64,000 nt of DNA from an uncultured Methanosarcinales archaeon. Its GTDB lineage: Archaea; Nanobdellota; Nanobdellia; Woesearchaeales; GW2011-AR15. The position numbers were made by a program, and so were the translations under genes. Of this stretch, positions 459 to 61,430 are shown in pieces. The notes below the pieces were generated by a model, which had not been told where the DNA came from, made no database searches, and saw nothing but the letters and a program-made list of their open reading frames with translations. The stretch spans positions 66,416 to 130,415 of the forward strand of contig CAZHYZ010000002.1 in the NCBI GenBank assembly GCA_964537195.1. The letters are read 5' to 3'. Position 1 is the first letter of the stretch. Each line of letters opens with the position of its first letter.

Positions 459-1292
459 ATGATTAAATCAAAGATTAAACAACTAAGGAAAGAAGGACAG
501 TCTTATAATGAGATTTCAACCAAGTTGAGAATTTCAAAAACATATGCTAGAAAAGTCGCTAAAAATGTTAAAATGTCTTTTGAAGGAGAGAAAAGATATT
601 ACTCTAGAGTTAAGGGAATTCTTAAAAGAATTAATTCACAAGAAAGTTTAGGAAAGAAGAAAATCAGAATAATTGGAAATCTCTTGTTTGATGGTGCAGT
701 TTTCAAATCAAACTACCATTACGTTGTTTCCTATGTTAATACAACCCAACAAATGGTCATTCTTTTTATACAAGACATGCAGGAGGTTTATGGACTAACA
801 CCTTCTGCGATAGAAATGGGGAAAGGAAAACACCACCCCTTTTTTAGAGTTAAGTATTGTTCAAAGAACCTCTATGATGATTTGTTAAACTATGTGACTT
901 CTTACTCAACAGCAGATTCAAAATGTAAAATAAAAAAAGAGATTATAAATTCAAAACCAAGAAGGCTTGTTGTGTTTCTTCGAACATTCTGGACAAATGA
1001 AGGGTCTGTTTCGGACACAGGAAGACTTACAGCAGATTCTAAAAGCAAAACAATAATAAAACAATTGTCTACAATGCATAAAAATTTAGGAATATTACAT
1101 AATGTGTGTTCATATTCGGTTGGGGAATACGGAACAATGTATAAATTATGTTTGAAAATTTCAAAGGAGAATTATCTAACTTTTTTTAATTTGAACTTAT
1201 TTGGAGATTCAATAATAACAAAAGGAAAAAATATTGGAAAAATGAAACAGACCAAATTAAAAGAGTATATGGTTTCAAGAAATTTTATTTAA
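459..1292 (+). CDS. Free-standing double-motif LAGLIDADG homing endonuclease with an N-terminal HTH
   Basis: Two dodecapeptide motifs are present: IIGNLLFDGAV (first LAGLIDADG) and FLRTFWTNEGSV (second, cf. GFFDAEGS). The N-terminal 40 aa (KQLRKEGQSYNEISTKLRISKTYARKV) look like a resolvase or sigma-type HTH. Confidence 0.55.
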   Translation: MIKSKIKQLRKEGQSYNEISTKLRISKTYARKVAKNVKMSFEGEKRYYSRVKGILKRINSQESLGKKKIRIIGNLLFDGAVFKSNYHYVVSYVNTTQQMVILFIQDMQEVYGLTPSAIEMGKGKHHPFFRVKYCSKNLYDDLLNYVTSYSTADSKCKIKKEIINSKPRRLVVFLRTFWTNEGSVSDTGRLTADSKSKTIIKQLSTMHKNLGILHNVCSYSVGEYGTMYKLCLKISKENYLTFFNLNLFGDSIITKGKNIGKMKQTKLKEYMVSRNFI

Positions 1293-1295
1293 AAA

Positions 1296-1439
1296 CGGAC
1301 AGCGAATCCGTTTTCCCGTATGAAATACAGTACTCACGGAAACGTCGGCGGCTTTTACTTCGGTGTTCGGACTCCCCTTCTCCAGGTGTATTACCAGAAA
1401 AATATGGGTACCGGTAGGACACCGCCACTATGGCCGTCC
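1296..1439 (-). rRNA. rrf: 5S ribosomal RNA with a ~33-nt insertion in the loop C region
   Basis: The minus strand reads GGACGGCCATAGTGGCGG..CCGGTACCCAT[33 nt]CCGAACACCGAAGTAAAAGCCGCCGACG..GAGTACTG..ACGGGAA..CGCTGTCCG. This matches the conserved archaeal 5S helices I, II and V, loop C and loop E. It is a GC-rich island in an AT-rich background and is followed by a T-run. Confidence 0.75.
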
Positions 1440-1462
1440 ATGTAGCAAGAAAAACAAGTCAT

Positions 1463-2272
1463 TTATAAAGATTTTGCATCTATGCCTTTCAAATCCTTTC
1501 TCGTCTTAAGTTTTATGACTTTAGACGTGCTTAAATATCCGTTCAGAAAGCCTTTTTCTGCTAAGGCTGGAAAAATATCTCTTTCTAGGCTGTGTCCAGC
1601 ATATTCTAATATCTCTGGCTGAGCTATAAATATTGAGGAAAATCCAAGATAAACATCAGATACAGCAGGTTTTTGTATGAATTCCATTATTTTAGAGCCT
1701 TCAATTTTAACAACACCTTTCTTTGTAGGGTCGGGCGTTGTAGTAAGTAATAAGGTGGCAACACCTTTCCTCTTTAAATGTTCGTTCCATAACTCTTCAA
1801 TGTTTAGATTAGAAAACAAAATATCTCCATATACAACAAGAAAACTAGATTTTAACTTTCCCCTCAATAGTTTCAATGAGTCTCCTGTTCCTTGAGAATC
1901 TTTTTCCTCAACATATTCTATATTTACACCATACTTTGATCCGTTTTGTACAATAGAAAAAACTTCATTTACAACGTTCTTTCTTGCAATCAAATATATT
2001 GTTTTAAAACCTTCTTCCTTTAACTTCTTTAACATAACTTCAATTACTGTGTTTCCATTGAATTTTCCAGTTATTCTGTATTCGGTATCAGAGATTTTTA
2101 TGTCTTCTTCAGGACCACCAGACAAGATTACAGCAGCTTTATTTTCACCAAGAGCAGATTTAACTAAGAGTTCTATTGCTTGACTCCTATTTCTTATGTA
2201 TATGTTGTCTATTATGTTATCAATATCTTTTAATGTCTTCTCATTAATAGTAATAGAAATCTTTTTTTTCAT
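1463..2272 (-). CDS. Sugar-phosphate nucleotidyltransferase (NTP_transferase fold) with an N-terminal ribbon-helix-helix (CopG-like) domain
   Basis: The N-terminus MKKKISITINEKTLKDIDNII..RNRSQAIELLVKSAL has the beta-alpha-alpha RHH pattern. The rest (AVILSGG..GTGDSL..VVYGDILF) is a glucose-1-phosphate thymidylyl/uridylyltransferase-like core. Confidence 0.6.
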   Translation of the reverse strand: MKKKISITINEKTLKDIDNIIDNIYIRNRSQAIELLVKSALGENKAAVILSGGPEEDIKISDTEYRITGKFNGNTVIEVMLKKLKEEGFKTIYLIARKNVVNEVFSIVQNGSKYGVNIEYVEEKDSQGTGDSLKLLRGKLKSSFLVVYGDILFSNLNIEELWNEHLKRKGVATLLLTTTPDPTKKGVVKIEGSKIMEFIQKPAVSDVYLGFSSIFIAQPEILEYAGHSLERDIFPALAEKGFLNGYLSTSKVIKLKTRKDLKGIDAKSL

Positions 2273-2373: not shown

Positions 2374-3636
2374 ATGAAAATATCAGTAATCGGACTCGGA
2401 TACGTAGGATTAATACAAGCAGCAGGCACAGCAAAACTAGGTCATGATGTGATTGGCATAGATATAGATGAAACAAAGGTTGATAAGATAAATAAAAAAG
2501 AACCCCCCATATATGAAGAAGGCCTAAAAGAATTACTTTCTGAAGTTGTTCCTTCTAAATTAAAAGCAACAACAGACATAAAAAGAATTTTGGATACAGA
2601 TGTAACTTTTATTTGTGTAGGCACTCCTTCAAAAAAACAAGGCAACATGTCTTTACATCAATTGGATCATGTACTTGCTCAAGTTGGCAAGTTAATAAAA
2701 AACAAAAAACACATTTTTGTAGTCAAATCAACGGTTGTTCCAGGAACATGTGAAGAAGTAGTTATTCCTAAACTTGAAGAGAGTTCTGGAAACAAATTTT
2801 CTGAAGGGTTCTCAGTTGTCATGAATCCTGAGTTTTTAAGAGAAGGACAAGCTATAGAAGACTTCTTTAATCCGGATAGAGTTGTATTAGGAAGTTCAGA
2901 TAAAAAAGCAATTAAGGAAGTAAAAAAGATATATTCTAAATTTGATTGTCCTGTTTTAGAAACAAAATTCAAAGAAGCAGAAATGATTAAGTATGCTTCT
3001 AATGCTTTTTTAGCAACAAAGATATCTTTCATAAACGAAATAGGAAACATTTCGAAGAGGTATGGGATCGATACTAACATTGTTGCAAAAGGTATTGGAC
3101 TAGATACTAGAATTAATGAGAGATTCTTACGCTCTGGGATAGGGTTTGGTGGAAGTTGTTTTCCTAAAGATGTAAATGCTATTGTGTACAAAGGCACAGA
3201 ACTAGGTTATTCTCCGAGATTGTTGAGAGCAGTTCTTGATATAAACAGGGAACAACCATTAAAATTAATTGAGTTGTTGGAAAAAAAGGGACCAATAAAA
3301 GGAAAGAAAATAGGATTACTGGGATTAACCTTTAAGGCCGGCACAGATGACATTAGAGAGAGCCCAGCATTAACAACAATTAAAGAGTTATTAATGGAAG
3401 AAGCAGTGTTGTCAATATATGATCCAAAGGCGATGGAAAAAGTAAAGAGAATATTTCCCCACCTTAACTATGCCAAAACAGGGCAGGAAGTTATAGATAA
3501 GAGTGAAATAATTCTTATATTGACCGAGTGGACAGAATTCAAGAAATTAAATTATGGCAAGAAACCCGTAATAGATGGAAAAAACTTGTTTTTCGATAAT
3601 AATATTCCTGAGAACTATGAAGGGATTTGTTGGTAA
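2374..3636 (+). CDS. ugd: UDP-glucose 6-dehydrogenase
   Basis: MKISVIGLGYVGL Rossmann N-terminus, catalytic GGSCFPKD motif, and UDPG_MGDP_dh N, central and C domains over 420 aa. Confidence 0.85.
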   Translation: MKISVIGLGYVGLIQAAGTAKLGHDVIGIDIDETKVDKINKKEPPIYEEGLKELLSEVVPSKLKATTDIKRILDTDVTFICVGTPSKKQGNMSLHQLDHVLAQVGKLIKNKKHIFVVKSTVVPGTCEEVVIPKLEESSGNKFSEGFSVVMNPEFLREGQAIEDFFNPDRVVLGSSDKKAIKEVKKIYSKFDCPVLETKFKEAEMIKYASNAFLATKISFINEIGNISKRYGIDTNIVAKGIGLDTRINERFLRSGIGFGGSCFPKDVNAIVYKGTELGYSPRLLRAVLDINREQPLKLIELLEKKGPIKGKKIGLLGLTFKAGTDDIRESPALTTIKELLMEEAVLSIYDPKAMEKVKRIFPHLNYAKTGQEVIDKSEIILILTEWTEFKKLNYGKKPVIDGKNLFFDNNIPENYEGICW

Positions 3637-6352: not shown

Positions 6353-7618
6353 ATGAAAGTTGCAATCATAGGTCTGGGTTATGTTGGTCTGCCACTAGCT
6401 ATACTTTGTTCTAAAAAAGGCCACGAAGTTATAGGTGTTGATGTTAATAAGGAAAAAGTTGAAAAAATTAACAAAGAGACAAGTCCGATAGAGGATAGTT
6501 ATATTAAGCAAAATTTGAAAAAAGCACCAATAAAAGCAACCACAGATTTTTCTCAAATAGAAAAAGCAGAAGTAATCATTGTTTGTGTGCCTACTCCGGT
6601 AGATGAAAAACACATCCCAGATTTAAGTTATGTTGTTTCTGCATCCGAAAGTGTTTCAGAGTACTTAAAAAAAGGTCAAACAATTATTATAGAGTCTACA
6701 GTACATCCAGGAACAACTGAGGAAGTTGTAAAACCAATTCTTGAAAAAACAAGTCTGAAAGCAGGAAAAGATTTCTTTTTAGCTCATTGTCCAGAGAGAA
6801 TTGATCCCGGAAACAAAAAATGGACTATTGAGAATATTCCAAGAGTTGTAGGTGGTATTGGTAAAGAGAGCACAAAGAAAGTAGCAGCGTTCTACAATTC
6901 AATAATCGATGCGGAAATAATTCAGGTTACTAGTCCCAAGGAAGCAGAAGCCACAAAAATAATGGAAAACACATTTAGGGATGTTAATATTGCGTTTGTT
7001 AATGAAATGGCAAAAAGTTTTGATAAAGCAGGTATTGATATAACAGAAGTAATTAAAGGAGCTTCTTCCAAACCATTTGGATTTATGCCACATTATCCAG
7101 GGGCAGGAGTGGGAGGACATTGTATTGCTGTTGACCCATATTATTTAATAGATAATGCAAAAAAATATGAATTTGATCACGAGTTTTTGAAATTAGCGAG
7201 GAAAATAAACAACAGCATGCCTGAATACACAGTTGGTTTATTGGTAGAGGAACTAAATAAGATTGGAAAAAGTGTGAAAGGTGCTAAAGTCGGCATTTTG
7301 GGGTTAGCATATAAAGCAGGGATAGATGATATGAGAGAAAGTCCTGCACTGAAGATAATTAAGATTTTGAAAAAGAAAGGAGCAGACATAGTTATTTATG
7401 ATCCTTTTATTCTAGAAAAGTCAGATGTTCAATCTTTAAAAGAACTATTGGAGAAAGTTGATTATTTGGTTTTGGTTACAGATCATAAGGAGTTTAAAGA
7501 GATGGAGCTTGGGTTGTTAGTACAGAGGAACATTAAAGTTGTTATTGATGGTAGGAATTGTTTGGATAACGAGAAAATAATGAAAAAAGGTATAAAATAT
7601 AGGGCTGTGGGAAGATGA
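6353..7618 (+). CDS. Nucleotide-sugar dehydrogenase (UDP-N-acetyl-D-mannosamine or -glucosamine dehydrogenase-like)
   Basis: MKVAIIGLGYVGLPLA N-terminus and GGHCI catalytic Cys motif. It is a paralogue of the ugd family but clearly distinct from the gene at 2374. Confidence 0.75.
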   Translation: MKVAIIGLGYVGLPLAILCSKKGHEVIGVDVNKEKVEKINKETSPIEDSYIKQNLKKAPIKATTDFSQIEKAEVIIVCVPTPVDEKHIPDLSYVVSASESVSEYLKKGQTIIIESTVHPGTTEEVVKPILEKTSLKAGKDFFLAHCPERIDPGNKKWTIENIPRVVGGIGKESTKKVAAFYNSIIDAEIIQVTSPKEAEATKIMENTFRDVNIAFVNEMAKSFDKAGIDITEVIKGASSKPFGFMPHYPGAGVGGHCIAVDPYYLIDNAKKYEFDHEFLKLARKINNSMPEYTVGLLVEELNKIGKSVKGAKVGILGLAYKAGIDDMRESPALKIIKILKKKGADIVIYDPFILEKSDVQSLKELLEKVDYLVLVTDHKEFKEMELGLLVQRNIKVVIDGRNCLDNEKIMKKGIKYRAVGR

Positions 7619-47546: not shown

Positions 47547-48743
47547 TTGCCTGTTTTTGATGTAATGGCAAAGGGACAAACACAACCACAAGGATATATT
47601 TCTCTGCTTATATTCATTATAGGAGTACTTATTATTGTTTATATATTAATGCTTCCTCCACCAGATAGAGCAGAGCTTCTAGAACAAAACAGAACAAATG
47701 CAGAAGATGGCATTAAAGACGATATTACTGTTTTGATGACCAGAGAACCAGGCACATTGACAAACATAGCTGATGATGAGGTTGTTAATGATTTACCAGC
47801 ATTTAATTTATTTACTAGAACGGATGCCACGATTATCGAGGAGTATGATTCATTCTATATTATGAAATCTTTGTTTGAGGAAAAGAATAAAGAGATTGCA
47901 TTCCAAATTGATGACTTTGAGAATACAGAAGATGTTGTTTTATCATATACTGCTCCCGTAAATGAAGGCAGACTGACCATTGCTCTTAATGGAGAAACAA
48001 TTATGAGCAAAGAGCTTGATACACAGAGTCCTCCGCCTCTGAAACTTCCTGCAGACTTGTTGCAGGACAGCAATAGATTGGTTTTTAGTACATCCGGACC
48101 AGGAATTCTATTCTGGGAAGTTAATGAGTTCAATATTGAAAATCTAAAGATTACTGGTGAAGTTACAGATGTTTCAGGTAGGGAGAACAAACAAATATTA
48201 TATATAACACAACAAGAACTTGATAATTTAGAAATGTTTGAACTTTCTTTTGCTGTGGATTGTAAGGCGACAGCAGTTGCACCCATTCAAATTTATCTTA
48301 ATAAAAGACAAATTTATTACAGCATTCCAGATTGTGGTTCCTTGGTAAAAGTTCCTGGGGTCTCACCTCAGAGATTGAGATCAGGAGAAAATGATTTGTT
48401 GTTTAGAACAGAGAAAGGCAACTATCAATTATATAGAATAGAAGCAAATTTAAAACTAAAAGAGCCAGTTTTTCCCACATATTATTTTACACTTTCTAAG
48501 GACCAACATAATAAGGTTAAAAAAGGGGATGCAGATGTTAATGTGACTCTTTTGTTTTCTAATGATGAAGATAGAAAAAAAGGCTTTTTAAGAGTAAACG
48601 GTGCACGTTATGATATAAACACATATGACATGGGATTTAACAGAAAGGCAAATGAATTTATTAGAATAGGAAATAATGCTGTTGAGATTGAGCCAGATAC
48701 AGAGTTAGATATTTTGGAATTAAGGGTTATGTTTGCAGAGTAA
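47547..48743 (+). CDS. Membrane-anchored or secreted beta-rich protein (first gene of a surface-protein cluster)
   Basis: N-terminal MAKGQTQPQGYISLLIFIIGVLIIVYILML (signal anchor, possibly a class III/pilin-like signal), then a ~350-aa extracellular region. Confidence 0.4.
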   Translation: MPVFDVMAKGQTQPQGYISLLIFIIGVLIIVYILMLPPPDRAELLEQNRTNAEDGIKDDITVLMTREPGTLTNIADDEVVNDLPAFNLFTRTDATIIEEYDSFYIMKSLFEEKNKEIAFQIDDFENTEDVVLSYTAPVNEGRLTIALNGETIMSKELDTQSPPPLKLPADLLQDSNRLVFSTSGPGILFWEVNEFNIENLKITGEVTDVSGRENKQILYITQQELDNLEMFELSFAVDCKATAVAPIQIYLNKRQIYYSIPDCGSLVKVPGVSPQRLRSGENDLLFRTEKGNYQLYRIEANLKLKEPVFPTYYFTLSKDQHNKVKKGDADVNVTLLFSNDEDRKKGFLRVNGARYDINTYDMGFNRKANEFIRIGNNAVEIEPDTELDILELRVMFAE

Positions 48744-48782
48744 GAAAGATTTATATATCTTGTTTGTTCTAAGAAATAGAGA

Positions 48783-50738
48783 ATGGTCCAAATAAAATTG
48801 CCCCAAGATAGGCCTGTTTTTCAAGGTGTTGTTTCTGTTTTGGTTGCTCTAGCAATACTTGTGGTGGACATTAGAACTGGATTTCTTGGCTATCATCTAC
48901 AAGGATATGAGTGGTATAATTGGCTTCTTGGTTTATTTACTGCAGGCGGACTTGTCTTAATGGCACATTCTTTTGTTTCACATTGGGGAAGATGGAAAGA
49001 AGGCACATCCGCAGTATTAAAAGATGCAATGTTTGTTTTGTGTGGTTTATTAAAATTCCAATCTGGGTGGGCTTGGATTAGGATTGTACTGATTTATATT
49101 GTGTATCATTTTTTCTTAGTTCCCACAATTGAAAATAATAATCCGGAAGAAAAAGAGAAATGGAACATCTATATGGTCGGAATTTTGGTTTTAGATTATG
49201 TTGTTCTCGGATCTTTATATAAATACACAGGCATAACTAAATGGCATATTCCAATATATTTGATAGCTTTCTCAGCTTATTTTCAATCAGTTGCAAAAAG
49301 CGCTTTTTTTACAATAGTTCTTACTTTATCATTTGCATTTTTGGCATTTTCGTTTATGGGAGTAGAACAAACTTTCCAACCAGGAATTTGGACAGCAGAC
49401 AGAGCAGAGCAAAATGCTTTTGTTAGAAGCGTAAAAGATTTTGGTGAATCTTTAGCGACAATCCCTAAAAATATACAACAAACGTGGAATTCAACGTATA
49501 ATAGTATTTTCAATCCAGATTATTATTATGATGGTCAACAAGAAGAAACAGATAAGCCACAAGGAGTTTATTTGGAGGAAATGGAGCGGGGTGAACTAAT
49601 ATATAGGGAAGGGAATGATGTGTATGTTTGGGCCAGAGTGACTGCAAAGACATTAGATGAACCTATTTTTGTTGAGGTAGATTGTGAGACAGAGCTTGAT
49701 ATTGATTTTGATACCATTCCTTTAGCTGGAACCATCGAAAGCGGTCTTGATGAGTTCACGGTTTTCTCAGGAGTAGAAAAAACTATCCCCTGCAAATTTA
49801 AGAACCTTCCCGAAGGAGATTATGATGTAAAATTTTCTGCCAGGTTTGGATTTAGTGGAAGCGCAAAAAAAGAAGTATACTTAATGAGAAGAGAGCGCCT
49901 CATGAATGATCTTGAATCATTGTATGATAGAAAAGATGGTCCTGCAACAAAAGAAGAAGTGTTAAGAGAATTATATGATATTGAGAATACAGAACCTGAG
50001 TCAATATTTACAACGGGGCCAGTTGGCATAGGTATCGAGACAGATAAAGTTCCTTGGGACATAGGGGGAGAAAATATTAAGCCTTTATTTGGAGTAACAA
50101 TAGAAAATTTGTGGACAACAGGAGGCAAGATAGAGAGAATAAATAATTTGGTCTTAAATATTCCAAACACAATGAAAATAGAACCCCAATATTGTGACCA
50201 ACCAATAGAATATGCAGGAGAAGAAGACGATTCAAAATTATATATTGTTAGACCTGACGAAGAGACAGTCAGCGACATTAAAAAATATGTTACTGTAAAT
50301 TGTTTGATGGAAGTTGATGAATCAACATTAGATAATGTTCCAGTTACCACCAGGTTTTTAAAAGTTGATGTTGATTATGATTATGTAATTGAAAATGAGA
50401 TAGATATTGGTGTTGAAGGCTATGATTTCTTAGATGAAGAAGAGGAAATCTTTGACAAAAATACGGCCTGTTGTGAATATAGTGATAAGGGGGGCTCTAT
50501 AAAAGAATATAATTGGGTAGCTAGTGAAGAAGAATGTTTAACAGAATATGAAGACAGTCCAGAAGCAATCACAAGAGTTGTTGACATTGATTATTGTGCA
50601 CAAGTCTGTTGTATAAGTTATGAAGCTGGTCGTGGCCTAAGTAGTGAATTGGGCAGAGAAGTAACTTCAATTTATGAATGCGAAAACGATTTGGCTCCTG
50701 GCGTTTATACTATTAAGAAAGAGGTAAGTGAATGTTGA
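48783..50738 (+). CDS. Polytopic membrane protein (about six N-terminal TM helices) with a large extracellular acidic domain
   Basis: Hydropathy over residues 1-200. The C-terminal 450 aa are Asp/Glu-rich and beta-rich, with paired Cys near the end. Confidence 0.4.
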   Translation: MVQIKLPQDRPVFQGVVSVLVALAILVVDIRTGFLGYHLQGYEWYNWLLGLFTAGGLVLMAHSFVSHWGRWKEGTSAVLKDAMFVLCGLLKFQSGWAWIRIVLIYIVYHFFLVPTIENNNPEEKEKWNIYMVGILVLDYVVLGSLYKYTGITKWHIPIYLIAFSAYFQSVAKSAFFTIVLTLSFAFLAFSFMGVEQTFQPGIWTADRAEQNAFVRSVKDFGESLATIPKNIQQTWNSTYNSIFNPDYYYDGQQEETDKPQGVYLEEMERGELIYREGNDVYVWARVTAKTLDEPIFVEVDCETELDIDFDTIPLAGTIESGLDEFTVFSGVEKTIPCKFKNLPEGDYDVKFSARFGFSGSAKKEVYLMRRERLMNDLESLYDRKDGPATKEEVLRELYDIENTEPESIFTTGPVGIGIETDKVPWDIGGENIKPLFGVTIENLWTTGGKIERINNLVLNIPNTMKIEPQYCDQPIEYAGEEDDSKLYIVRPDEETVSDIKKYVTVNCLMEVDESTLDNVPVTTRFLKVDVDYDYVIENEIDIGVEGYDFLDEEEEIFDKNTACCEYSDKGGSIKEYNWVASEEECLTEYEDSPEAITRVVDIDYCAQVCCISYEAGRGLSSELGREVTSIYECENDLAPGVYTIKKEVSEC

Positions 50739-51694
50739 GCAAAATGAAACTTAATTGGTCTGTATTGGTTGTATTGACTTTAATTCTATTAAATGGGTGT
50801 ATATGGAATGATTCTTCTGATGAGGGTACAGATATAGAAAAAGACCTATACCAAGGAACAAAAGGCGTTGTTTTAGACATAGTTGATGAGAACATACCTG
50901 ATGAGTTATATGAGAACGAAGAAATCAACTATGTGGCAAAATTCACGAATGAGGGACCTTATCAGGTTAACAATGCCAAACTTTTAGTGAGCGTGGATAA
51001 AGGTTATATGCATTTTTCTAATGAAGAATCTGTTTATGGAGAAGAAAAATTTGGTCTTGAAGGAAAGACCCAATATAATATGTTTGATGACTTTGAAATT
51101 AAAGAGTTGACAATTTATACTGGGGATATAGATCCCCTAAGCGAATATCACGACGCATCGATTCTCACAACATTTTGTTATGATTATAAAGGAATTGCAA
51201 TAACAGATGTTTGCATTGACACAGACCCCTATGATACCAAAGCAACAGAAGACATATGTGATGCGGGAGAAGTCATTAGTCTTTCAAAAGGCCAGGGTGG
51301 TCCTGTGGTTATAGACAGAATAGAAACAACCATGCTTACTGAAAATGATTTTATAAGACCTCAATTTAAAATTCACATGAAAAATGTTGGTCAGGGAACA
51401 GTAATCCAAGTGGGTTCTGTTACAGAGGTTTGTAGTAGCGACGGATTGGTTGGCGGGACATATAACACAATCAAATTTGATAATATTGAGCTATCAAACT
51501 TTAAAACAGGAGATTTCGAATGTTTTCCTAAAGGAATTAGTCTTAGAAAAGAAGAAGATTTTGTTACTTGCACACTTAAATCAGGAAAGATACCCAAATC
51601 AGATTCATCATACATGAGTCCACTGAAAATCGAAATTTCTTATGGATATACACAATCAGAATCGAAAGAGGTAAGGATATTGAGAATGCGTTAA
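50732..51694 (+). CDS. Predicted lipoprotein with CARDB-like repeats (paralogue 1)
   Basis: Signal + lipobox-like LLNGC. Conserved core TFCYDYKG..C..GQGGPVVI shared with the next two genes. NxG beta-sandwich motifs. Confidence 0.45.
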   Translation: MLSKMKLNWSVLVVLTLILLNGCIWNDSSDEGTDIEKDLYQGTKGVVLDIVDENIPDELYENEEINYVAKFTNEGPYQVNNAKLLVSVDKGYMHFSNEESVYGEEKFGLEGKTQYNMFDDFEIKELTIYTGDIDPLSEYHDASILTTFCYDYKGIAITDVCIDTDPYDTKATEDICDAGEVISLSKGQGGPVVIDRIETTMLTENDFIRPQFKIHMKNVGQGTVIQVGSVTEVCSSDGLVGGTYNTIKFDNIELSNFKTGDFECFPKGISLRKEEDFVTCTLKSGKIPKSDSSYMSPLKIEISYGYTQSESKEVRILRMR

Positions 51695-51695
51695 A

Positions 51696-52556
51696 ATGAA
51701 AAAAATACTTTTCCTATTTTTATTGTTTATTATTGCATGTACTGTAACTGAAAACACGGCCGATTGGAAAACAGGAACACAAGGACTTGTAATGAGTTAT
51801 GAATCAGGAGAGCCGAAAACAGAGTATCTTAGCAACCAAAGGGTGAAAGTTACAGTAAATTATGAGAACAAAGGAACAGCTATAGCAAGAAACATAAATT
51901 TCTGGTTAACCTCTTTTGATGAGAGCATATTGGGGTTTACCAACCTCCACAAAATTCCTGCTAACCTGGGTGGGAAAACACAAGATAATCCAGAAGGATA
52001 TCCAAGTAGATATGTGGAATGGGAAACCACAATTGACGTTCCTTCACCAGAAATAGATAGTTTTGATCAAGTTGTTAGTGTTGTTGCATGTTATGAGTAT
52101 TCAACAGAAGCAGAAGGTCTTGTTTGTCTAGAACCAGATACAAGAAATCCAAAATGTGATTTTTCTGTCAAAAACATAGGCACTAGTCAAGGAGCACCAA
52201 TAGCTATCACACAAGTTAAAAGACAAATCTCTACTGATGAAATTATAGTTGAGATTTATTTGGAAAACAAAGGAGGAGGGAATCCAATACTTGGTTCTGA
52301 CTGTAAAAATCCAGATATAAGAGATATCAATGTGATAGATGCTCCCAGCGTTATGATTGGTGGAGTAAGAAAAAATCCAAGAATTAGGTTATCTTGTGTT
52401 CCTTCAAAAATTAGACTTGAAAACAACAAAGGATACACTATTTGTAGGGGAAATTTCAATCAGAAGACACAGACCGAAGAACAAATATATGTAGATTTTA
52501 ATTATAGGTACAGACAGAAAATGTCTGATAAAAAGATTACAATACTAAATCCGTAG
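51696..52556 (+). CDS. Predicted lipoprotein with CARDB-like repeats (paralogue 2)
   Basis: Signal + IIAC lipobox-like. ACYEYSTEAEGLVC..GTSQGAPIAI core. Confidence 0.45.
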   Translation: MKKILFLFLLFIIACTVTENTADWKTGTQGLVMSYESGEPKTEYLSNQRVKVTVNYENKGTAIARNINFWLTSFDESILGFTNLHKIPANLGGKTQDNPEGYPSRYVEWETTIDVPSPEIDSFDQVVSVVACYEYSTEAEGLVCLEPDTRNPKCDFSVKNIGTSQGAPIAITQVKRQISTDEIIVEIYLENKGGGNPILGSDCKNPDIRDINVIDAPSVMIGGVRKNPRIRLSCVPSKIRLENNKGYTICRGNFNQKTQTEEQIYVDFNYRYRQKMSDKKITILNP

Positions 52557-52607
52557 TAGAAAGATTTATAATTATCTGAAACTAATAAAACTTAAAGGTG
52601 ATGATGG

Positions 52608-53540
52608 ATGAAAAAATCAATAATTCTTGTTGTAGTTGTTTTAGCACTTTTCACAATACTTGGTTGTGAAACTCAGAATGGTGAAAATGAGCTCAATAAT
52701 CCTTTTGTTGGAGGTTCTCAAGGATTGCAGATTACATTTGAACAAGATAGGCCGCCAGAGGCAGTTACAGATGATAGAAGTTGGCCTTTCTATGTTGAAC
52801 TCATATTGAAAAACATGGGAGAATCTTATGTTGAGGGAAGCGATGTCTTCATACAAATAAGTGGGCTACAATCAGATGCATTTGGAGTTTCTGATTCTGA
52901 CTTAAGAAAAGATGGTATAGACCAAGACATATTCTCAGTTGAAAAAGAAGAAGACAGAGTAATTGAACCTGCAGAAGTTTATGTTACTTTTGGAGAATTT
53001 AATTATGTGCCTGACTTAAACACAAATTATGGTCCAATTGATGTTAGGGCAGAAGTATGTTATGAATACTCAACGGAGGCTGTTGCACTTGGTTGTATCC
53101 TAAGAAACCCAACAAACCCACCAGAACAAGCATACTGTGAAGTAAGTGGAGAAAAAAAGATATACAATTCAGGGGCACCATTACAAATATCTAATTTTGT
53201 AGAAAGTCCTTCAGGGTCTGATAGAATAAAATATGTTTTTTCAATAGAACATGTTGGACCTGGAAGATTCTTTTCACCAGGAAGCAAGTGTTTTGATCAA
53301 CAGAGGTCTGAAAACAAAGTCCATTTTTCTATTGTGTCTGGAGTTGCTAATCTTAATTGCCAACCTGTAAGCGGCGGAGGAAAAGAAGGAGAAGTATACT
53401 TAGGCAGAGATGGTAAAGCAGACGTTTCATGTGTACAAGAAACAGAAGTGGGAAGTGATTTCTTTGACCAGATTACTGTAGAACTAACATATGATTACCT
53501 ACAGACACAAGAAGTTCCTCTATTGGTTAAGGCAGACTAA
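52608..53540 (+). CDS. Predicted lipoprotein with CARDB-like repeats (paralogue 3)
   Basis: Signal + ILGC lipobox-like. VCYEYSTEAVALGC..NSGAPLQI core. Confidence 0.45.
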   Translation: MKKSIILVVVVLALFTILGCETQNGENELNNPFVGGSQGLQITFEQDRPPEAVTDDRSWPFYVELILKNMGESYVEGSDVFIQISGLQSDAFGVSDSDLRKDGIDQDIFSVEKEEDRVIEPAEVYVTFGEFNYVPDLNTNYGPIDVRAEVCYEYSTEAVALGCILRNPTNPPEQAYCEVSGEKKIYNSGAPLQISNFVESPSGSDRIKYVFSIEHVGPGRFFSPGSKCFDQQRSENKVHFSIVSGVANLNCQPVSGGGKEGEVYLGRDGKADVSCVQETEVGSDFFDQITVELTYDYLQTQEVPLLVKAD

Positions 53541-54238
53541 TTGAGAATTTCTTTAAATTTTTCTTTTATATCTTTTTCTCTTTCATAATACTTCTTTTTA
53601 GATTCTTTTAGCTCACCATAATATCTCTTTAAATCTTCAGTTAGACTTTCTACTTGCGTCTTGTATTCAATCTCTTTATCTAGGTGAAGTTTGCCTAATT
53701 TTTTTAATCTGTCTTCGAAATTCTTCCTAATCAAGATTGTTTTTTGTTTTAGTAAGTCTTCATTTGCTAAACTTTTTTTACTTAGAAGGGTTAGTTTATC
53801 CATTATTCTATTATTGAGAAGTTTCATCTTTTCGTAATTCTCATAAATTTCTTTAGTTCCCTTTAATAATTTCTTGTATTGTGTTGTCAAATGGATATTC
53901 TTTTCTTTTTCCTTGGCTAATCTTTTATTTAATTCAAGCTTTAATTCCTCATATTCTCTTAACAAAGATTTGTGTTTGTGTTGAGATTTTTTCTTTTCTT
54001 CTTTTACTGATTTTGTTAATTTGTTGAATTTATCATACATGTCGCTTTTAATGAGGTCCTGATTCTTTAATAGAAGTTTTCTTAGTTTTAGGTTGTTTTC
54101 TTCTATCTTTTTGAATGCAGCAATGTTTACTAACAATCTTTTAAGAAGGTCTTCAGTCATAGAAATCTCTCTATTAACAGAACTGGCCTCTTTTTTAGTT
54201 ACTCTATCTAATTCCTCAAAATCAGGTAATCTAACCAT
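53537..54238 (-). CDS. Lys/Glu-rich coiled-coil protein
   Basis: Heptad-rich sequence over the whole length. The start is placed at MVRLPDFEEL so it does not overlap the upstream RFC gene. Confidence 0.4.
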   Translation of the reverse strand: MVRLPDFEELDRVTKKEASSVNREISMTEDLLKRLLVNIAAFKKIEENNLKLRKLLLKNQDLIKSDMYDKFNKLTKSVKEEKKKSQHKHKSLLREYEELKLELNKRLAKEKEKNIHLTTQYKKLLKGTKEIYENYEKMKLLNNRIMDKLTLLSKKSLANEDLLKQKTILIRKNFEDRLKKLGKLHLDKEIEYKTQVESLTEDLKRYYGELKESKKKYYEREKDIKEKFKEILN

Positions 54239-61133: not shown

Positions 61134-61430
61134 GTAGGGCAGCACTTAACTTTCCCATTAATGGGAGGAAAGTCCACCCACTATTGTGGTCACTTACGGA
61201 AGTAAGCTTGAGAAATCGAGGGCAACCACTCAGAAACGAAACCACCCGGAAAGAGGATGATAAATGCGAAGGTTCTGGTGACAGAACTCAGTTAACCTTT
61301 TGACGTTTTTTCGGGAAAGGATGAAACGGTGAGTCCTGACCTGTGCAACCTGTATAGGGCTTAGTTGAATGTTAAGACAGATGTTTTCCTGAGGGAAGAT
61401 CTGACAGAAGGTGGCTTATAACTGCTCTAC
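61134..61430 (+). ncRNA. rnpB: RNase P RNA (archaeal type)
   Basis: P4 strands GGGAGGAAAGTCCACCC and ACAGAAGGTGGCTTATA. P1 pairing GTAGGGCAGC / GCTGCTCTAC. GNRA-rich internal loops. A GC-rich island followed by a T-run terminator. Confidence 0.8.

Follow-up and report, generated by a model that had tools for sequence, protein, structure and literature searches.

What are the roughly thirty extra nucleotides doing in loop C of an archaeal 5S rRNA gene? The question is raised by a gene near one end of a 64,000-nt stretch of DNA (contig CAZHYZ010000002.1, positions 66,416 to 130,415; "the window" below means this whole stretch). A first-pass annotation made from the sequence had offered two options for the insert, a structured expansion or a small bulge-helix-bulge (BHB) intron. 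The BHB motif consists of a 4-bp central helix and 3-nt bulges on opposite strands. Our comparative evidence favours the intron, because homologous inserts keep this 3-4-3 geometry and their excision reproduces the loop C of insert-free relatives. We consider it probable that loop C of the window 5S rRNA is interrupted by a BHB mini-intron of 32 nt, at window positions 1372..1403.

The identity of the gene was established with Rfam and nhmmer. The Rfam model RF00001 (5S_rRNA) matched the reverse strand from 1441 down to 1294 over its complete length (model positions 1-120) with 56.4 bits at a gathering threshold of 38 (E-value 4e-09), and nhmmer searches with the 5S sequences of relatives recovered the same gene with an E-value of 1e-33. 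In the following, nucleotide n of the RNA corresponds to window position 1442-n. The conserved 5S elements listed in the first-pass annotation are all present, both in the full-length Rfam match and on inspection of the sequence, and, apart from position 33, the pairing of helices I-V and the loop motifs are intact outside the insert. The sole large deviation from the model lies in loop C, where 35 nt replace the model's 3 between CCCAU and GAAC. The covariance model places all additional nucleotides there and absorbs none of them elsewhere, in agreement with the location first given for the insertion. The gene, with 148 nt and 35 nt between the two motifs, misses the canonical 5S size (~115-120 nt, with 2-3 nt between CCCAU and GAAC), and both canonical size and canonical loop C are reached only once nt 39-70 are removed, which leaves 116 nt and the loop CCCAUUCCGAAC. 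The limits of the insert had originally been set at 1371..1403 (33 nt). Positions 1372..1403 (32 nt, RNA nt 39-70) hold, and 1371 is excluded because the U at this position belongs to the mature loop, in which CCCAU is joined to UCCGAAC. Neither Rfam nor nhmmer found a second 5S gene within the 64-kb window. A TATA-like box (TTTATAAA) upstream of the gene would be its archaeal promoter and a T5 run at its 3' end its terminator; T runs likewise end the 5S genes of the related loci L031, L037, and L035. Judged by these signals, the window 5S gene seems to be active and transcribed as a unit of its own.

Comparison with the 5S genes of related genomes revealed that the insert belongs to a family. 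One genome per species was scanned for a 5S-like pattern in which CCCAT and GAAC stand 10-40 nt apart; this returned four genes for archaeal 5S rRNA (L005-L008), each of which exceeded the Rfam threshold. A similar scan of metagenome contigs yielded additional insert-bearing genes, and L031 and L037 were added by sampling via neighbouring proteins; the recurring inserts stem from GTDB genomes, JGI, ENA, and Logan. Besides the window, nine further distinct 5S genes on Woesearchaeota- or Nanoarchaeota-type contigs from independent assemblies carry an insert at the identical position, directly after U38 (L037, L006, L007, L008, L021, L012, L014, L022, and L031). The hairpins of the ten inserts vary in length, from 5 bp to over 10 bp, and are unrelated in sequence. 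The constants lie at the junction: exon UCCC (nt 33-36), AUA or AUU, the hairpin, GGGA or GGGG, exactly 3 nt, and YCGAAC. Within the 3' bulge, positions 1 and 2, predicted to be intronic, vary among the ten genes, and position 3, predicted to be exonic, is a pyrimidine (U or C) in every gene, in line with that prediction.

The 4-bp central helix (H) and the two 3-nt bulges are complete in all nine homologues, with G.U pairs used in H of L037, L014, and L031. The strict hBHBh' form, in which H is additionally flanked by an exonic helix h and an intronic helix h' of at least 2 bp each, is realised in six genes, where it was the top match of our scanner, and nearly so in three: L014 and L031 depart from it only by a mismatch inside h', and L037 has H and h' intact and lacks the outer helix h, as does the window. 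Helix h measures 3 bp in eight of the ten genes (CGA/UCG, or UGA/UCG in L012). In an alignment of the junctions, 94.2% of the cells were paired compared to 76% in shuffled alignments, none of which reached the observed value (0/500), and sliding the partners by 1-3 columns left at most 64% of the cells paired. H was paired in 97.5% of cells, with U.G as the sole variant, and compensatory, double-sided changes were present at all five counted hairpin pairs. From these sequences, the conserved part of the inserts is the 3-4-3 BHB splicing geometry, and the hairpin is free to change. The initial view that the insert is not random sequence is thus borne out by a junction geometry that homologues keep and a stem that covaries.

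The product that excision would leave provides a second line of evidence. BHB motifs are cut between the second and the third bulge base, a rule derived from tRNA introns at position 37/38, and any symmetric cut offset leads to a product of identical length. In-silico excision joins CCCAU to UCCGAAC in the window and in L037 and to UUCGAAC in most of the other genes. All genes carrying this insert alone would reach a mature length of 114-117 nt, with 116 nt for the window. For comparison, 5S genes were sampled, unconditioned on the insert, from contigs that encode homologues of the two neighbouring proteins. The closest relative found, L035 (NTP-transferase 87% identical), has the loop C CCCAUUCCGAAC and no insert in it, and L038 (NTP-transferase 76% identical) has CCCAUUUCGAAC, also insert-free. 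The 5S genes of L024, which shares the gene order of the window, and of L027 measure 115 and 116 nt and carry no insert. The excised loop C of the window is identical to that of L035, and its excised 5S rRNA of 116 nt compares with 115-116 nt in L024, L027, and L038. The distribution of the insert is patchy, with presence and absence among close relatives. Taken together, insert-free alleles in close relatives and the exact match of the loop therefore indicate that the insert comes and goes, and that BHB-defined removal recreates the loop base for base. The insert-free relatives simply have a canonical loop without these 32 nt, rather than the same sequence in a different alignment.

Additional insert sites exist in other archaeal 5S genes. 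L005, from a "Bathyarchaeota" metagenome-assembled genome, and L015, both on Bathyarchaeota-type contigs, have loop C inserts of a separate family, located 5 nt further downstream than those of Woesearchaeota; here H would be UCCG/CGGG with bulges AAA and AAC, and the product would be canonical (CCCAUUCCGAA joined to C). Several long intron-bearing tRNA genes adjoin the L015 5S gene. A further insert of 28-31 nt occupies the AA bulge of helix III in L031, L035, and L037. In L031, this junction can be drawn with CUCG/CGAG, bulges GAU and AGA, an h' of 9 bp, and a canonical product, CUCGGA joined to AGUUAAGC; in L035 and L037, the register ACAC/GUGC with one A.C mismatch and an h' of 10 bp gives the canonical GAAGUU. 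All three insert sites thus also appear to have BHB-compatible junctions and canonical products. The genes with two inserts escape standard detection: L037 scores 34.6 bits with Rfam, below the threshold of 38, and L031 is unreported by Rfam even at an E-value of 0.01 and was recovered by nhmmer only. A few genomes without a 5S gene detectable by cmsearch are listed in a preprint of 2026 that covers 208 complete Nanobdellota genomes, and doubly interrupted 5S genes may explain such "missing" 5S genes in DPANN surveys.

Several other candidates from the scans were set aside. L011 (5293-5434, + strand) and L018 (2216-2359, - strand) are 5S genes of rRNA operons that score 87 bits with Rfam, and their duplicated segment (...CCCAUACCGAACACGGAAGUUCGUUCCCAUACCGAAC...) identifies them as a bacterial partial tandem duplication of helix III and loop C, not the same phenomenon. 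L001-L004, L009, and L010 share a conserved Prevotella/Bacteroidales site that has no Rfam match and is not a 5S gene. No 5S match in L020 reached the gathering threshold, and it contains only a cut-off bacterial large-subunit rRNA. Two scans of viral contigs found no 5S genes with or without an insert.

In the window copy itself, the insert folds into a hairpin, as had been described initially, with a stem of 6 bp (U40-A64 to C45-G59), a 1x1 mismatch, a stem of 3 bp (G47-C57 to U49-A55), and a loop of 5 nt. Modelling the BHB motif at the insert junctions revealed both 3-nt bulges, the 5' one being unpaired in the minimum-energy fold, and a helix H of three G-C pairs and an A33.G68 mismatch. 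The strict hBHBh' definition is missed, with an h' of 6+3 bp and no h (U32.C72). Local folding of eight sequences yielded the BHB conformer as the minimum-energy structure in five and within 0.6 kcal/mol of it in the window (-13.8 versus -14.4 kcal/mol) and in L006; in L037, its distance to the minimum is 2.1 kcal/mol.

Based on this geometry, the following route can be proposed. The 5S precursor would be transcribed from its own TATA-type promoter to the oligo-T stop. Exon nt 33-36 (ACCC) would pair with intron nt 65-68 (GGGG) to form a helix of four positions flanked by the bulges A37-U38-A39 and A69-G70-U71, with the intron hairpin (nt 40-64) stacked on it. The tRNA-splicing endonuclease would then cut between U38 and A39 and between G70 and U71, and an RtcB-type ligase would join the exons to a 116-nt 5S rRNA with the canonical loop C, releasing the 32-nt intron, probably as a circle. 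Cleavage, ligation, and the cut positions in the window precursor are predicted here by analogy with known BHB substrates.

Several points weigh against splicing. The motif of the window is the poorest of its family, with A33.G68 mismatched in H and the outer helix h missing, and an endonuclease that accepts relaxed BHB motifs would therefore be needed; such tolerance is a property of the (alpha-beta)2 and epsilon2 splicing endonucleases. Neither a splicing endonuclease nor an RtcB ligase was found among the window open reading frames (ORFs) scanned with Pfam, a scan that covered the ORFs up to ~7.6 kb and, beyond 22 kb, those of at least 120 aa. At the helix III site of L035 and L037, the register with a perfect helix (CACA/UGUG) leads to GAAAAGUU, which contains two extra A. 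The junction alignment had been excised according to the proposed structure, and its counts lean towards that structure; the slide control is the fairer comparison. Finally, weak 3-4-3 patterns with short flanking helices were frequent by chance in unconstrained scans, and when our BHB scanner was applied to the intron-containing tRNAs of L015 as a positive control, those introns had relaxed motifs. Scanner matches were therefore not taken as sufficient, and the case was built on position, conservation, and product. In a null model that kept the real hairpin and exons, randomised the junction flanks, and required a strict motif and the canonical length ±1, the chance rate was about 2% for the loop C family compared to 12% for the helix III site and 23-33% for L015. 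A low chance rate was thus obtained for the loop C family only, and the weight of the argument therefore rests there, on its conservation in ten divergent sequences and on the agreement with relatives that lack the insert.

The imperfect motif of the window and the frequency of short BHB-like patterns in unconstrained scans also lend some credit to the strongest alternative, namely that the hairpin is never spliced and forms a solvent-exposed extra arm on loop C of the mature 5S rRNA, as in some Clostridia-type bacteria. The best point in its favour, and a further one against the intron, is that loop C at positions 34-37 and the bulge of helix III are the sterically least obstructed sites for retained expansion in the ribosomes of bacteria (Stepanov & Fox 2021, PMC7812874), and that both insert sites of the archaeal clade match them. 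Retained 5S insertions of 13-109 nt have been described, some with helices rooted at loop C 34-37 (Stepanov & Fox 2021). However, the expansion segments described there lack complementarity to the core and leave conserved motifs uninterrupted, whereas here the insert splits CCCAU from YCCGAAC and pairs its conserved GGGR with core nt 33-36. What is conserved over ten homologues is the 3-4-3 junction geometry and not the arm. Moreover, a retained arm leaves unexplained the fixed 3-nt spacer before YCGAAC and the exact insert-free loop obtained on removal, and three different insert sites are all BHB-compatible. We therefore regard a retained expansion segment as a serious but rather doubtful explanation.

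A defective or decaying copy, either a pseudogene or a gene with a splice-incompetent intron whose function is taken over by a canonical 5S gene elsewhere in the genome, appears very improbable. Our view is limited to 64 kb of the genome, and A33 of the window departs from the family, breaking both the pair in H of the precursor and the mature U33-A75 pair, which is non-standard in the Rfam alignment. However, the rest of the gene is intact, with a full-length Rfam match over threshold, helices I-V, the TATA-like box, and the T run. It is also the single 5S gene of the window, and according to the Nanobdellota preprint mentioned above, nearly every genome has a single rRNA set. The sister locus L037 has the same intron with U33, which is paired both in the precursor (as an intact U.G) and in the mature fold (U33-A75). 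An artefact of sequencing or assembly, or a hairpin that arose by chance, is suggested by the probable origin of the window from a metagenome-assembled genome and is effectively refuted by the recurrence of insert site and junction motif in at least ten distinct sequences from independent projects and assemblers.

Coordinates of the features discussed here, including those of the intron as predicted, are given in Table 1.

Table 1. The interrupted 5S rRNA gene of the window, its predicted splicing elements, and related loci (positions refer to the window or to the locus named).
Feature	Stretch	Position	Strand	Basis
5S rRNA gene, 148 nt including insert	window	1294..1441	-	Rfam RF00001 and nhmmer
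Exon 1, RNA nt 1-38, ends ...GGUACCCAU	window	1404..1441	-	predicted: BHB geometry and homologous junctions
Predicted BHB mini-intron, RNA nt 39-70, 32 nt, AUUUUUCUGGUAAUACACCUGGAGAAGGGGAG	window	1372..1403	-	junction comparison, product
Exon 2, RNA nt 71-148, starts UCCGAACACCGAAG	window	1294..1371	-	predicted
Central helix H, 5' strand, exon A33 C34 C35 C36	window	1406..1409	-	pairs with G65-G68
Central helix H, 3' strand, intron G65-G68	window	1374..1377	-	GGG invariant, fourth base R, in 10/10 homologues
5' bulge B1, A37 U38 A39, predicted cut after U38	window	1403..1405	-	AUA/AUU in 10/10
3' bulge B2, A69 G70 U71, predicted cut after G70	window	1371..1373	-	3-nt spacer in homologues
Intronic hairpin h', nt 40-64	window	1378..1402	-	computed fold; stem compensated in homologues
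TATA-like box TTTATAAA, ~25 nt upstream of RNA nt 1	window	1462..1469	-	read from sequence
T5 run, oligo-T terminator-like, gene 3' end	window	1291..1295	-	read from sequence
Free-standing LAGLIDADG-type endonuclease gene, 277 aa, N-terminal helix-turn-helix-like part	window	459..1292	+	Pfam LAGLIDADG_3
5S rRNA gene with insert	L015	801-953	-	
5S rRNA gene with insert	L005	2951-3101	-	
5S rRNA gene	L031	1161-1340	-	
5S rRNA gene	L037	1706-1882	+	
5S rRNA gene	L035	1519-1665	+	
LAGLIDADG homologue beside 5S	L024	3001-3834		
LAGLIDADG homologue beside 5S	L037	1888-2715		
LAGLIDADG homologue beside 5S	L027	3001-3843		
LAGLIDADG homologue beside 5S	L013	4484-5329		
LAGLIDADG homologue beside 5S	L031	278-1144		
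LAGLIDADG homologue beside 5S	L022	191-1051		
LAGLIDADG homologue beside 5S	L006	1553-2245		

The 5S gene of the window is adjoined by a LAGLIDADG-type endonuclease gene (30.9 bits with Pfam LAGLIDADG_3 at a cut-off of 22.5). It is convergent with the 5S gene, its stop codon overlapping the T run 2 nt from the 5S 3' end, and it lies outside the 5S gene rather than inside an intron or intein. The protein has two LAGLIDADG motifs, FDG (D78) and NEGSV (E181), whose acidic residues are invariant in eight homologues and are probably catalytic. A LAGLIDADG gene stands directly beside the 5S gene in eight distinct Woesearchaeota-type loci, the window and seven others, and is found on either side and either strand of it, depending on the locus. 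The linkage of the LAGLIDADG gene to the 5S locus is robust. It is not restricted to intron-bearing loci: homologues stand beside the insert-free 5S genes of L024 and L027 and are absent at the insert-bearing L016, L008, and L021. More distant homologues (L032 and L034) overlap the end of a tRNA-Met gene. The orientation of the 5S gene relative to its conserved NTP-transferase and dehydrogenase neighbours is inverted between the window and L012/L016.

These data raise the possibility that 5S rRNA is an unrecognised host of BHB introns at no fewer than three sites and in two phyla, a gene of ~120 nt holding as many as two introns, and that in Woesearchaeota these introns are mobile together with the free-standing LAGLIDADG gene. 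In such collaborative homing, uninterrupted 5S rDNA would be the substrate of the endonuclease, with the intron interrupting this target or moving with it. If true, this system would explain both the patchy introns and the shifting position and orientation of the endonuclease gene. As a whole, this extended proposal is improbable on present evidence.

The sequence surrounding the 5S locus is archaeal, with ~32% G+C, an RNase P RNA, and homologues of Hef, HerA/NurA, RFC, and aRF1, and the close homologues of its proteins are labelled Woesearchaeota or Nanoarchaeota by their sources. We infer that the host is a Woesearchaeota-type (DPANN) archaeon. The archaeal RNase P RNA (61134..61430, + strand, 144.7 bits) itself deviates from its model by two lineage-specific insertions of ~35 and ~23 nt and by a 37-nt segment reduced to 2 nt. 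ARAGORN and Rfam found no tRNA gene in the 64 kb, which may be chance or may reflect tRNAs with unusual introns that were missed. Two paralogous UDP-glucose/GDP-mannose dehydrogenase genes (2374..3636 and 6353..7618, both on the + strand) sit in an apparent surface-glycan gene cluster among the ORFs scanned, and six consecutive ORFs of 233-651 aa at 47565..54238 have no Pfam match at an E-value of 1e-6.

How does the insert relate to known systems? Known BHB introns of archaea reside in tRNAs, in a few mRNAs, and in 16S and 23S rRNA, where short introns that consist of a hairpin only also occur. Our full-text literature search found no report of an intron in 5S rRNA, which, its coverage being incomplete, amounts to absence of evidence, and nothing relevant came from searches that joined 5S rRNA with BHB, DPANN, or Woesearchaeota. 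The sequence comparisons favour a known BHB mechanism in a new host RNA. The closest parallel are the small (<~50 nt) BHB introns in 16S and 23S rRNA of Thermoproteales (Jay & Inskeep 2015, PMC4496867), which share with the inserts described here a conserved rRNA site, the 3-4-3 junction, a short and variable hairpin without an ORF, patchy presence, and LAGLIDADG genes at the locus. In contrast to those introns, the host RNA here is 5S rRNA, the carriers are DPANN/Woesearchaeota and a separate Bathyarchaeota-type family, the LAGLIDADG gene stands beside the rRNA gene, and splicing is predicted. The archaeal tRNA introns at non-canonical positions, such as those of ARMAN-2 (Fujishima et al. 2011, PMC3239211), are similar in length (13-40 nt), in that several may occur per gene, and in the presumed enzymes, and their motif classes are mirrored by the strict hBHBh' form in most relatives and the relaxed form without outer helix in the window; however, the substrate here, 5S rRNA, is not a tRNA.

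The inserts also resemble 5S expansion segments (PMC7812874), such as the 108-nt insert of Halococcus morrhuae (PMC7530397), in that the 5S RNA is oversized, carries its own helix, and was overlooked by annotation, and in their location, after nt 38 at the permitted loop C site in the window and at the helix III bulge in relatives. Unlike the known archaeal expansion segments, which are all from Halobacteriales and at another site, the junction here has the form of a splicing motif whose removal would give a canonical loop. Nor is the window insert self-contained as expansion segments are (PMC7812874), since it pairs with the core and splits a conserved motif. Finally, the rRNA insertions with LAGLIDADG genes in the Candidate Phyla Radiation (PMC11270868) likewise come from uncultured lineages of ultra-small cells in which many rRNA genes are interrupted and LAGLIDADG genes lie at rRNA loci. 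As described there, those insertions are bacterial and encode the endonuclease, whereas the inserts here are non-coding, measure 22-40 nt, and have the endonuclease outside.

The interrupted 5S genes bear on genome annotation as well as on ribosome biology. Annotation mis-sizes 5S genes with one insert, and genes with two inserts fall below the Rfam threshold, which can make DPANN genomes seem to be without 5S rRNA. If the insert is retained, it would represent the first archaeal 5S loop C expansion segment outside Halobacteriales, and a new member of a rare class. If it is spliced, endonuclease-dependent introns occur not only in tRNAs but in each of the three rRNAs of archaea, and the tRNA-splicing machinery would be required for the maturation of 5S rRNA. 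Until splicing, the loop of this RNA that is most conserved and contacted by protein would then remain unfolded, which may provide a checkpoint in assembly.

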